Shown piece by piece: positions 43,801 through 49,800 of a stretch of 64,000 nt of DNA. Source of the stretch: Escherichia coli (GTDB lineage Bacteria > Pseudomonadota > Gammaproteobacteria > Enterobacterales > Enterobacteriaceae); assembly GCF_003018255.1 (NCBI RefSeq), contig NZ_CP027440.1. One strand, 5' to 3'. Numbering within the stretch: the first letter of the stretch is position 1; each line of letters begins with the position of its first letter. The position numbers are program-made.

Positions 43801-46800
43801 TCTGATTGGCCGTAGTGGGGCTGCCGTCAGGACGAAAGCGCGGGAACTGGGTATCTGCATGATGTTACGGGGTGATTATCACCAGTCAGCCAAATGTTCA
43901 CAGCGTGATATTGAGCTGGCGCGGCAATTGCATCAGCGTGGCGTACCCCGACGGGAAATTGCCGAAAAGTTTGGGATGAAGTTGGGCGCAGTGAATAACT
44001 ACGTTTATTTCGACAGGAGGGTTCAGGCGTGAGGGTGAGAATTTATATCGCCGGTCCGATGACGGGATATGAAAATTTCAACCGTGAGGCGTTTCACAAG
44101 GCGGAAGAAGCACTGAAACAGGAAGGGCATACCGTATTAAATCCCGCAGTACTTCCGGACGGGCTGACTCAGCCACATTACATGGATATTTGCATGGCAA
44201 TGATTCGTTGTGTGGATGCGGTTTATATGCTGGAAGGCTGGCAGCGGTCGGCAGGCGCTAAGGCAGAGCTGGCACTGGCGGAGAAACTGGGGCATGCAGT
44301 TATTTTCCAGGAGGCAACCAGTGAGCGAAATTAATTACCAGGAACTACGGCAGGTGAAAGAGAAAGCATAATCCAGAACTGAATAATTAAAATCAGCACT
44401 GTAAATAAAATTTAATCCTTAACCGGAGGGATTCCTGCACCCTCAGAACATCAGGAGACCGCCCGGCAGGGCGGTAGTGAAATGCGAAAGTTCAAAATAA
44501 TTATTGAAACGGGAATCGCCGGTGGAGATTCCGAGGATGAATTCGAAGTGAATGATGATGCGACGCCTGATGAAATTCATAACGAAGCAAAAGAAATTTT
44601 CTTTAACTACTGCAATTACTCATATCACGAAATAAAAGACGAAGAGGAAGAACAAAATGGCTGATTTTGGTTCAACTAAATACAACGTCAGTTTTGAAGA
44701 ATGGCATGAACTGTTAATGGACTATGCAGAGTTACGTGGTGGAAGTGCCGCCGATGCTGAAGCATGGCGTGATGACTATGAAGCAGGAAAAACTCCGGTC
44801 GAAGCATATTGTGATGAGTGGGGCTATGAATGAGCGAGATTAATTATCAGGAAGGGCATGAAACGGCAGGGCAGGCAAAACCAGTGGCATGGCGATATCG
44901 CTACGTGAAGAAAGACGTTACAGACTTTCAGGGGAAGCTGTGGGTTGGTGACTGGAAATATGTACCGACAAAAGAGGATTGCAACGACAGACCGAACTAT
45001 GAAATTCAGGCCTTATTCATCGGCCCGCCAGTCCCGGTGACATCAGAAGGACTGGTTAAAGCTGTGCGCTTTTATGAACAGGTAAAGCGTGAGAATCCGC
45101 CAGTCGAAACAGGAGCATGGAAGGATGCTGTTGACTGGGTGCTCAGAGAGGCCTGCTGTGCTGCCATTCTGGGTAAAGCCGACAATCCACCAGCATCCGG
45201 CAATCAGGTTAGCGAATTAGCAATGTGGGTTAAACGGCTGGTCAGCCAACTGAAAAAAGCGAAGCCGGACTGCAAATTACCGGATAAGGCGATGGACTAC
45301 CTGAAGCGAAACGGACTGATAAACGAGGAGAATATTTTACGATGACCTGGCCTGAAGCGTTCATAACGGTAGGAATTGCAATGGCGGTGGCGCTGGTGGT
45401 GTATTCGATTTGCCGCTGGGGATAAAAACGGTTTGCGGGGAAAGAAGAGTTAAGTAGAATTGCTGCGGGTGCTTGAGGCTGTCTGCCTCGGGCATGCCGA
45501 CGTAAGGCAGACAGAGAAAAGCCCCAGTTAACATTATGCGTCTTGCAGGACGCTTAACATTAATCTGAGGCCATATCTATGACTTGCACACTTAGATTAG
45601 CCTCTTATGCGCCGAAAGGCAAGGAGCAGCAGGCTATGAAGCAGCAAAAGGCGATGCTAATCGCCCTGATCGTCATCTGTATTACCGTCGTTGTAACGGT
45701 ACTGGTAACGAGGAAAGACCTCTGCGAGGTACGAATCCGAACCGGCCAGACGGAGGTCGCTGTCTTCACAGCTTACGAATCTGAGAAGTAAGAGACCCGG
45801 CGAGGGAGAAATCCCTCGCCACCTCTGATGTGTCAGGCATCCTCAACGCACCCGCACTTAACCCGCTTCTGCGGGTTTTGTTTTTTCCTGGCATTCTGGT
45901 TTACAATTCGCACGCCGGCCTGAACAACTGGCACCTGCTGTGTCACCGGAGAACCCGATGGCGCAACGTATAAAATCCCACAATTCTGAAGCCGTCCCGG
46001 CCATTAAGCGGGGGCGGCATTCGCACGTATTTAAAACCGACTGGTACCAGCATCCCCCATGCACTGAAGAACAGGCCGAATGGCTGATTCAGTGTTACCG
46101 CAGGCGCGGATACGAGGTTAAGAAAGCCATCAGCCTCGATTATCGTCACTGGATAATCTCTGTCAGGCTCCCTTATTCCGAACATCCACCGCGTCCGTCC
46201 CGCACATTCCAGCAACGTATCTGGAGGTAACGTGCGGGTATTACTTCGACCTGTTCTGGTGCCGGAACTTGGCCTGGTGGTCCTTAAGCCTGGACGCGAA
46301 TCACGGCCTGTTTTTCATTGCGGCAGGGTGCTGGTGGAGCCGGAACCGAAAAACATGCGCGGTCTGCCGTCCGGAGTCGTTCCTGCCGTTCGCCAGCCGC
46401 TGGCAGAGGATAAAACATTACTGCCATTTTTCAGCGATGAGCGGGTTATTCGTGCAGCAGGTGGTGCAGGTGCACTGTCTGACTGGTTATTACGTCACGT
46501 GAAATCCTGCCAGTGGCCACACGGCGATTATCATCACAGCGAAACAGTCATTCACCGTTACGGTACCGGCGCGATGGTGTTGTGCTGGCACTGTGACAAC
46601 CAGCTGCGCGACCAGACATCAGAATCACTCGATCAACTTGCTCAGCAGAATCTGGTTGCCTGGATGATTGATGTCATCCGTCACGCAATAAGCGGTACGC
46701 AGGAGAGGGAGTTATCGCTGGCCGAATTATCCTGGTGGGCGGCCTGCAATCAGGTGGTGGATGCACTACCTGAGGCAGTAGCGCGTCGTTCGCTGGGATT

Positions 46801-49800
46801 ACCAGCGGAAAAAATCCGCTCCGTATACCGTGAGAGTGACATCGTACCGGGAGAACAGACAGCCATCAGCATACTGAAGCAGCGCACAAAAAATATTGCG
46901 CTGCCACTTCACGTCCACCAGCAACAAAATCCACCACAGAAAAAGACGGTTGTCAGTATCGCCGTTGATCCGGAGTCTCCTGAATCGTTCATGAGGCGGC
47001 CTAAACGTCGCCGTTGGGTTAATGAGAAATACACGCGCTGGGTAAAGACACAGCCGTGTGCGTGTTGTGGTAAGCCAGCTGACGATCCGCATCACCTGAT
47101 TGGTCATGGTCAGGGGGGAATGGGAACAAAGGCCCACGATATTTTCACGCTACCGTTGTGCCGGGAACATCACAACGAACTTCATGCTGACCCGCTGGAG
47201 TTTGAGAAAAAGTACGGCTCTCAGGTTGAGTTAATTTTTCGTTTTCTTGAGCACGCCTTTGCAACTGGCGTGCTCGGGTAAAAGAGGTGACTGATGCTCA
47301 TAGAGTTGGTTTTACCTTACCCGCCGACGGTGAACACTTACTGGCGACGCCGTGGCAGCACATATTTTGTATCAAAAGCCGGGGAGCGTTATCGCCGGGC
47401 AGTGGCGCTTATTGTTCGCCAGCAGCGGCTGAAATTAAGCCTGTCCGGAAGGCTGGCGATAAAGGTGATTGCAGAGCCACCGGATAAGCGTCGTCGCGAC
47501 CTGGACAATATCCTGAAAGCACCGCTGGATGCGCTGACGCACGCGGGGTTGTTAATGGACGATGAGCAGTTTGATGAAATCAATATTGTACGTGGAAAGC
47601 CAGTATCTGGTGGACGTCTGGGGGTGAAGATTTACCCCATAATGCTTGAAGGGCAGGTCAAAAAATGAAACTGGAAGATTTACCGAAATACTACTCCCCA
47701 AAATCCCCTGGCCTGACCGATGCATCGGCCTCAACGTCAAAAGATGCGCTGAGTATCACTGATGTGATGGCCGCGCAGGGCATGACACAGAATCGGGCTG
47801 AGATGGGGTTTTCTGCGTTCCTTGGGAAAATGGGCATTAGTATGAATGACAGAGAGCGGGCAACAGAATTGCTGACAGAATATGCACTCAGTCGGTGTGA
47901 TCGCGTGGCGGCGTTAAGAAAACTCCCGGCAGAAATAAAACCGGCAGTGATGCGTATTATGGCTTCGTATGCGTTTGAAGATTATGCCCGTAGCGCGGCG
48001 AGCAAAAAACAGTGCCCCTGCTGTCACGGAAAAAAATTTATTGAAAGCGAGGTTTTTACAAACAAGATCCAGTATCCGGATGGTAAGCCGCCAGTGTGGG
48101 CAAAGTGCACAAAAGGCGTGTATCCGTCTTACTGGGAGGAATGGAAAAAAGTCAGGGAGGTGGTAAAAGTTGCCTGTCCGGAGTGTGGCGGAAAGGGGGA
48201 GGTTTCCACCGCCTGTAAAGATTGTCGTGGGCGCGGTGTTGCCATTCATCGTGAAGAGTCTGAAAAACGGGGTATGCCTGTTATCAGGGACTGCCAGCGT
48301 TGTGGTGGTCGTGGCTATGAAAGATTGCCGTCAACAGAGGCATTTAATGCTATATGCGAGGTGACAAACCAGATAACACGCGCGTCATGGGAAAAAACAG
48401 TTAAGAAATTCTATGATGCGCTGGTGAGCAAGTTTGATATTGAGGAAGCATGGGCTGAGAGGCAGTTAAAAAAGGTAACCAGGTAACAAGGTTGATTTTT
48501 CCGGAATCTGTGGTAAATTAGCCCTAACGATGGGCGTTTTATGCCTGACGTTGGAAGACTTTTTACACCCGTCGCCAGGCGGGTTTTTTATGACTGAAAT
48601 CACGCCAGTACAGTAAACGCGCTGGCGGCGGTGAATACCGGTCTTTCAGCTTGCTGGCTTTTTCGACAAGAGTTATTGGTATGTCACGTTAACCGGAAAA
48701 GGGAAAAAGACATGCTGAAACAGCAGGATATGACCGAAACCGCCAGAGTGGTGTTTAATGAATTAAGTGCCACCGCATCGGCGACAGTCGGGGAGATTGC
48801 ACAGAATACTTACCTTTCACGCGAACGCTGTCAGTTAATACTGACCCAGCTTGTTATGGCGGGTCTGGCAGACTATCAGTTCGGTTGTTACAGACGCCTT
48901 CAGTCCTGAAGGCTTTTTTATTTGTGGTAAATGGGCGGCTGGTGGGTGTTAGGGGCACTCACCAGCCATCTGCTCATGCGTTGGGGTCACAAGCAAACCT
49001 CAGGCCCACTGCTTTGCGCAAAAGCAGAATGAGCCTATCAGAGACAGGCTTAATGATCCATGCTTAATACTGTAAAAATATCCAGTTGTGAGTTAATCAA
49101 CGCTGATTGCCTGGAATTTATCCAGACCTTACCGGAAAACTCTGTCGATCTGATAGTCACAGACCCGCCATACTTTAAAGTGAAGCCCGAGGGCTGGGAT
49201 AACCAGTGGAAGGGCGACGATGATTACCTGAAGTGGCTGGACCAGTGTCTGGCGCAGTTCTGGCGGGTGCTGAAACCTGCCGGAAGTCTTTACCTGTTCT
49301 GTGGCCATCGCCTGGCATCTGACATTGAAATCATGATGCGTGAACGCTTCAGTGTGCTGAACCATATTATCTGGGCAAAGCCGTCCGGACGCTGGAACGG
49401 GTGCAACAAGGAAAGCCTGAGGGCGTATTTCCCCGCCACAGAGCGCATTCTGTTCGCGGAACATTATCAGGGGCCGTATCGTCCGAAAGATGCCGGGTAT
49501 GAGGCGAAGGGCAGGGCACTGAAACAGCATGTGATGGCTCCGCTGATTGCTTACTTTCGTGATGCGCGCGCTGCCCTGGGGATAACGGCAAAACAGATAG
49601 TGGATGCCACAGGAAAGAAAAACATGGTGTCGCACTGGTTCAGTGCCAGTCAGTGGCAGCTGCCGGACGAAAGTGATTATCTGAAATTACAGGCGCTGTT
49701 TGCCCGGGTGGCAGAAGAGAAGCATCAGCGGGGTGAACTGGAAAAGCCCCACCACCAGCTGCTGGAGACGTATACTTCACTGAACCGGCAGTATGCGGAA

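Follow-up and report, generated by a model that had tools for sequence, protein, structure and literature searches.

A YdfU-family (DUF968) protein beside rusA in an Stx2a prophage of Escherichia coli: its HNH domain and a possible role in processing branched DNA

What does an HNH-type protein do when it is encoded next to a Holliday-junction resolvase and far from the packaging site of its prophage? The question is raised by a gene of the YdfU (Pfam DUF968) family in Escherichia coli contig NZ_CP027440.1, of which a stretch of 64,000 nucleotides was analysed (the window, to which all positions refer). The gene lies in an Stx2a lambdoid prophage, and a first-pass annotation had described it as an HNH-motif protein at 46232-47281, leaving its role unclear. 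The open reading frame (ORF) does occupy these positions, and all the motif strings quoted for it are present. Its last ~95 residues are a zinc-stabilised HNH/His-Me-finger domain with every catalytic position filled, and homology to RecA-linked phage nickases, together with an invariant linkage to rusA, helps to narrow down its role. The best explanation overall, in which we have moderate confidence, is that the protein is an HNH nickase acting on D-loops or branched DNA alongside RusA, a counterpart of lambda Rap and not a packaging HNH.

The C-terminal HNH domain and its relatives

The gene, its nuclease domain and the motif residues within it are located as follows:

46232..47281, + strand: YdfU-family (Pfam DUF968) gene, 349 amino acids (aa), GTG start, TAA stop (ORF call, Pfam and PHROG)
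46994..47278, + strand: HNH/His-Me-finger nuclease domain, aa 255-349
47057..47068, + strand: first zinc knuckle, C276-x-x-C279 (C276 in 69/71 representatives, C279 in 57/71)
47090..47095, + strand: H287-H288, the latter (66/71) lying at the end of beta-1 and predicted to act as general base
47138..47140, + strand: D303, an Asp conserved almost without exception (70/71) in place of the 'N' of H-N-H, aligned to D47 of YbcO
47159..47185, + strand: C310-R-E-H313-H314-N-E-L-H318, second zinc knuckle (C310, H/C313) with metal-binding H314 and H318 on a helix

Conservation was counted over 71 cluster representatives that cover the HNH domain and share at most 50% identity with one another. Besides the counts given above, C310 was found in 59 of the 71 and H314 and H318 in 64 each, while position 313 was His in 35 and Cys in 20 (either residue in 55/71). 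In an alignment of 35 full-length homologues (24-81% identity), C276, D303 and P308 were invariant and H288 nearly so. The strings read in the protein itself, C276-A-C-C279-G-K, D285-P-H287-H288-L and the C310-H318 string listed above, follow the pattern of the zinc-finger HNH subclass, namely C-x-x-C, then HH, then D, then C-x-x-[C/H]-H-x-x-x-H. The predicted fold is the ββα-metal fold, and the top structure matches in the PDB were all HNH nucleases; the catalytic His stands at the end of the first strand, accompanied by the metal-binding His of the helix and a Cys3His-type zinc site, with C276/C279 and C310/H313 filling the two zinc-knuckle positions. Comparison with the catalytic positions of known HNH proteins, the check on which the proposed zinc-finger motif depended, bore it out: the His in the catalytic position of P1 Ref (H113), of Gp16 from phage ΦNM1 (H157) and of YbcO (H32) is matched by H288, and H314 and H318 pair with H185 and H189 of Gp16. 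The sole departure from the textbook motif concerns the Asn that braces the hairpin, in whose place D303 is found. Substitutions at the HNH 'N' position are known in the superfamily, so D303 is no bar to membership; the protein has a group-specific H-D-H variant, with an Asp at this position as in YbcO. The protein is very probably an active HNH nuclease.

The label 'DUF968-like' proved right: the Pfam DUF968 model (PF06147) matched with E=8.5e-77 (257.5 bits against a gathering cut-off of 27.8), its positions 1-171 of 171 aligning to aa 160-346, and PHROG 96, 'HNH endonuclease', matched over the full length (E=1.4e-173). No NCBIfam model was found for the 349-aa protein. The gene is real and under purifying selection. 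We detected 3201 homologues at E<=1e-3 in a representative library clustered at 50% identity, and the ratio of non-synonymous to synonymous substitution rates (dN/dS) was 0.22 against the homologue in phage vB_EcoS-640R1, where the surrounding 3.1-kb region shares 87.5% DNA identity; together these values place the gene far beyond chance. Concerning the start site, a Shine-Dalgarno sequence, GGAGG, was read 4 bases before the GTG (46223..46227, + strand), homologue alignments begin at residue 1, and the Prokaryotic Genome Annotation Pipeline (PGAP) predicts the identical coding sequence in the 99.4%-identical prophage of E. coli O91 RM7190, under the name 'DUF968 domain-containing protein'. 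Two other candidate features within the gene, a terminator-like hairpin at 46458-46481 and an antisense ORF at 46799..47137, were taken as chance occurrences.

The protein comes from a catalogued prophage family, of which it is an ordinary and very common member, and its HNH nature has already been published and is not new. The allele is ~95% identical to thousands of database entries, phage records label the homologue 'YdfU family protein', and of 5426 complete E. coli genomes, 4556 contained a match to the ydfU–rusA region, in as many as 9 copies each. YdfU of K-12 Qin (PF06147) belongs to the same family and has the same neighbours (rem, hok, rusA and Q), with no material difference. Jablonska et al. 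2017 placed DUF968 and DUF1364 in His-Me finger group 7, naming YdfU and YbcO, noted RusA and Q as neighbours and proposed a recombination role for the DUF968/YbcO group. YbcO was linked to Ref and HNHc_6, with a predicted nuclease function, by Kaur and Subramanian 2016, and in the description by Curtis et al. 2014, DUF968 proteins of Gram-positives consist of an Orf-like domain fused to a zinc-finger HNH.

By structure the nearest relative is P1 Ref, by sequence ΦNM1 Gp16; each is a phage HNH nickase that acts together with RecA. When the PDB was searched by sequence, neither the single protein nor a full-length or an N-terminal profile gave a usable match, and YbcO and Ref were recovered solely via fold search plus pairwise or profile alignment. 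For Ref (PDB 3PLW; PF16786), comparison with the family profile gave an hhalign probability of 79.5% (E=1.5e-5), and BLASTP gave 34% identity over 106 aa. Ref is a RecA-dependent nickase whose cuts fall within D-loops, and to bind DNA it needs its basic N-terminal region; it differs from the YdfU-family protein in having a 76-aa disordered basic tail in place of two folded domains, and its H153 has no counterpart here. Gp16 of the Staphylococcus aureus phage, located in DQ530359 via the residue numbers stated in the Gp16 paper, is the best sequence match among characterised proteins (BLASTP E=6e-10, 41% identity over 59 aa); the CxxC...H...CREHHNExH layout is shared in full, and the CREHHNExH string is the same. 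Gp16 is a member of HNHc_6 that scores above the DUF968 gathering cut-off as well. Besides binding RecA, it nicks plasmid DNA alone, stalls host replication and increases phage yield; residues of the CREHHNExH string have been mutated experimentally, and zinc-ligand mutants are dead. The likeness extends to its setting, as an early phage gene with the ΦNM1 rusA in the same early block, ~3 kb downstream of gp16. YbcO of DLP12 and phage 82 (PDB 3G27; PF07102, formerly DUF1364) is a 96-aa stand-alone HNH whose activity is predicted, and the YdfU-family protein differs from it by ~250 extra N-terminal residues.

Domain layout and the N-terminal zinc module

Upstream of the HNH domain, the protein is divided as follows (AF2 denotes AlphaFold2, and pLDDT its predicted local distance difference test score):

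46232..46456, + strand: aa 1-75, small N-terminal beta/alpha subdomain of no known family (AF2 models; no Pfam, PDB or BFVD match)
46457..46705, + strand: aa 76-158, second zinc module, built of a beta-hairpin (105-118) with one helix before it and another (119-125) after it
46508-10, 46532-4, 46583-5 and 46592-4, + strand: second zinc-site ligands C93, H101, C118 and C121, followed by D122-N123
46706..46903, + strand: aa 159-224, helical middle region in which the Pfam DUF968 model starts (Pfam, AF2)
46904..46966, + strand: aa 225-245, disordered linker and mosaic junction (pLDDT <50 for residues 225-240; identity drop)

The AF2 model of the full protein had a mean pLDDT of 87.7. A basic stretch, R254-R-P-K-R-R-R-W261, precedes the HNH domain. 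For the N-terminal 158 aa, Pfam, sequence searches of the PDB and BFVD gave no match; a Foldseek search of BFVD with the N-terminal model returned nothing significant (best E=0.22, template-modelling score <0.3). Within this region, aa 76-158 are the most constrained part of the protein, with a dN/dS of 0.033 against the 640R1 homologue. The zinc ligands lie on the hairpin and helix (105-125) in a model with a pLDDT of 91.6, and over 73 representatives C93 was retained in 73, H/C101 in 71, C118 in 72, C/H121 in 72 and D122 in 65. In the model, this segment looks like a degenerate HNH-like ββα unit; its would-be general base is kept in just 29 of the 73 representatives, against 71-73 for the zinc ligands. 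It could be imagined, although we consider it unlikely, that the protein is a two-module enzyme in which a dead, duplicated N-terminal HNH-like unit senses branched DNA or RecA filaments and directs the active C-terminal HNH, the whole being a nickase, dependent on RecA or on structure, whose products would pass to RusA.

The two ends of the protein differ in their divergence. Relative to the vB_EcoS-640R1 homologue, aa 76-158 are 96% identical, while the HNH domain has 61% aa identity with saturated synonymous divergence. The gene is mosaic at the disordered linker (46904-46994, aa 225-254), where a conserved N-terminal part is joined to a divergent C-terminal part, and the HNH domain, perhaps along with rusA, would seem to be exchanged as a separate module.

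Several variants were observed within the family. In one subfamily (rows P0233, P0238, P0200, P0221 and P0226 of alignment A1), most HNH zinc ligands are lost (C279 replaced by T, C310 by S, H or A) and the catalytic HH...D...H...H is retained; it looks like a zinc-free HNH variant. P1 PdcB is a full-length YdfU-family member encoded just 5' of the late activator gene lpa (AF234172 88859-89896; L009 4001-5044 is listed alongside), and P1 carries both Ref, an active HNH, and this dead YdfU homologue. Proteins in which the first 115-300 residues of YdfU are joined to tail-fibre, tip-attachment protein J or portal domains (P0145, P0187, P0189, P0155, P0241 and P0126) were rejected as informative architectures; these N-terminal 'fusions' are best read as chimeric ORFs created by internal deletions in decaying prophages.

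The rem–ydfU–rusA–Q block and its prophage

The neighbouring genes of the block and the packaging site, which serves as a reference point, are:

45958..46230, + strand: rem-like small ORF, 90 aa from the PGAP start (phrog_1212)
47294..47668, + strand: rusA, Holliday-junction resolvase gene (PF05866, E=1.8e-16)
47665..48486, + strand: Q-type late antiterminator, end of the early-right operon block (PF03589, E=1.1e-53)
58742..58753, + strand: exact lambda cosN GGGCGGCGACCT (sequence match; not part of the feature)

These genes form a compact block in the early-right (nin) operon. The rem-like ORF ends in a TAA at 46228-46230, leaving a 1-nt gap before the GTG of the ydfU-family gene; rusA, correctly named as its neighbour in the first-pass annotation, follows after 12 nt, and the rusA stop overlaps the Q start (ATGA). 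The linkage was followed in 80 related IMG/VR loci, found from a 14-sequence alignment and all close relatives (88-98% identity). Directly downstream, rusA was present in all 78 loci with room to see it, and rem was directly upstream in 77 of 77; the same Q allele followed in just 29 of 70. RusA also adjoins two distant homologues (31% and 40% identity). Beside a 30%-identical homologue, a 112-aa DUF1064-like protein (E=1.3e-4, below the cut-off) is encoded between the DUF968 gene and Q (L002 1112-1450), and this putative resolvase-like protein in the RusA slot may be a non-homologous replacement of the partner nuclease. No conserved Rem-like partner was found 5' of the distant homologues, where the upstream small ORFs are mutually unrelated. 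The rem-like protein, WP_001341173.1, is named 'hypothetical protein' in one of two genomes and 'GIY-YIG nuclease family protein' by the newer PGAP annotation in the other. Its Pfam GIY-YIG match is only sub-threshold (E=0.0098, half of the domain), and it has no NCBIfam match and no PDB relative by sequence. If the newer name is true, three nuclease-type genes (rem-like, ydfU and rusA) would follow one another.

The prophage is inserted beside potC, and its top genome match is E. coli O91 RM7190 (99.4% identity). The local order is replication genes, DUF1627, DUF4406, several small ORFs, hok/sok, rem, the ydfU-family gene, rusA and Q. The hok/sok-type toxin-antisense module (45467-45791, + strand; Rfam sok, 113 bits; Hok Pfam E=3.9e-23) is complete and lies within the early-right operon, just 5' of rem. 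After Q come an N6/N4 DNA methyltransferase gene and three tRNA genes (49060-50407), directly 5' of stx2A (50501-51460) in stx2AB. On the other strand, an 814-aa ORF (35517-37961, - strand; 813 residues scanned) has an exonuclease VIII (RecE-like) region at its N-terminus and, in addition, an Rv2179c-like 3'-5' exoribonuclease domain. As the recombination nuclease of the prophage itself, it bears on any part that YdfU and RusA may play in recombination. The packaging set consists of the exact lambda cosN (58742-58753) with a lambda-type Nu1/gpA terminase and portal (58866-61377). The distance of about 11 kb to cos that had been noted is accurate, as cosN lies 11.46 kb downstream of the ydfU-family gene, just before Nu1, and the gpA terminase has its own endonuclease domain (GpA_nuclease, E=2.6e-71).

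Proposed role and its alternatives

We propose that, after prophage induction, the YdfU-family protein would nick D-loops or other branched recombination or replication intermediates, to which it might be recruited by RecA filaments or by DNA structure, via the N-terminal zinc module and the basic RRPKRRRW stretch. RusA would resolve the four-way junctions resulting from nicking, and the two proteins would favour recombination-dependent replication and rid concatemers of their branches ahead of packaging. The parts of this proposal differ in probability: processing of recombination intermediates with RusA is about evenly balanced between true and false, and dependence on RecA is rather doubtful. 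In this role, the protein would be the positional and functional counterpart of lambda Rap (NinG; PF05766), a branch-specific endonuclease and itself a predicted His-Me finger, which holds the same nin slot just before Q. The analogy is one of working only, as no similarity to lambda NinG was detected by pairwise BLASTP (best E=1.8) and PF05766 did not match; the YdfU-family protein is not a member of that family.

Several observations weigh against a RecA-linked nickase working with RusA. No published assay of YdfU or YbcO was found in the literature, and because there is none for YdfU, YbcO or DUF968, nuclease activity and substrate are inferences. The similarity to the characterised families is incomplete: HNHc_6 (PF16784) scored below threshold (23.1 bits against 26.6) and over the HNH core only (aa 271-320), and PF16786, the Pfam family of Ref, did not match. 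Gp16 has a NinB/Orf-like N-terminal domain, whereas the YdfU-family protein has another, uncatalogued zinc domain; since the accessory domains differ from those of both Ref and Gp16, RecA dependence cannot be transferred by homology. In Gp16, moreover, the H157A substitution, equivalent to H288, failed to relieve toxicity. A subfamily that includes P1 PdcB keeps both zinc sites and has lost H288, H314 and H318 altogether, so some function of the family is independent of catalysis. As for the linkage, the IMG/VR loci are 88-98% identical, so the 78/78 count partly reflects shared ancestry and is not phylogenetically independent, and no recognisable resolvase was found beside a 37%-identical homologue.

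Among the alternatives, the one that survives best is a Gp16-like host-takeover nuclease, which would nick the host chromosome early after induction, stall host replication and favour lytic growth, with any effects on recombination being secondary. This is exactly the phenotype of Gp16, the closest experimentally studied sequence relative; there is also no obvious immunity partner gene, and expression, judged from operon position, would occur only after induction. The N-terminal domains of the two proteins, however, are unrelated, and invariant association with a junction resolvase is more in keeping with DNA processing than with host killing. We regard host takeover as improbable, and it overlaps with the nickase reading that we prefer.

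Less probable still is a non-catalytic zinc-finger protein with a DNA-binding or regulatory function, whose HNH fold would only bind and whose conserved function would be that of the N-terminal zinc module. The strong constraint on that module (dN/dS 0.033) would agree with it, as would the PdcB-like subfamily, which keeps both zinc sites with its catalytic histidines gone, the annotation of an Arsenophonus family member as 'phage transcriptional regulator', and the location of the gene directly before late activators (Q here, Lpa in P1). Yet the catalytic residues are all intact and conserved, both here and in ~90% of representatives, which is hard to explain without catalysis.

A conflict nuclease that cuts competing phages, satellites or co-resident prophages, for exclusion or anti-defence, seems very unlikely. 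HNH nucleases are so used elsewhere (ICP1 being an example), E. coli genomes can hold up to nine copies of the region, and the divergence of the HNH domain (61% aa identity, against 96% for the zinc module) recalls an arms race; but ordinary lambdoid mosaicism at the linker explains this divergence equally well, the gene occupies a fixed core-operon slot beside rusA and not a defence island, and the PADLOC defence-system models matched neither the protein nor its two neighbours. HNH genes are often mobile, and the distribution among lambdoid phages is mosaic, as might be expected of a selfish homing endonuclease gene; against this, the protein has three domains and a conserved syntenic slot, is tightly packed against both neighbours and is co-present with rem and rusA in 77-78 of 78 loci, with no intron, intein or free-standing insertion signature, so that homing is highly improbable. 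A terminase accessory HNH for cos cleavage, of the HK97 gp74 type, is the least credible: all that favours it is a general precedent, the use that cos phages can make of HNH partners of the same fold, whereas here the gene belongs to the early operon and not to the end of the late operon, is adjacent to neither terminase nor cos, 11.46 kb away, and a packaging role is rejected because the terminase is a lambda-type gpA with its own nuclease domain, in keeping with the doubt already voiced that this is a terminase-adjacent packaging type.

The ydfU–rusA pair is very common in E. coli, and the slot of the YdfU family beside RusA is fixed in lambdoid and Stx prophages. For DUF968, kinship to P1 Ref and ΦNM1 Gp16 provides a concrete hypothesis, that of a D-loop HNH nickase, possibly assisted by RecA, and the family also carries a second zinc module that is not described in current domain databases. 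If the two-module reading is true, a nickase encoded 3 kb upstream of stx2 in a RecA-induced prophage could affect phage replication and hence the yield of Shiga toxin.

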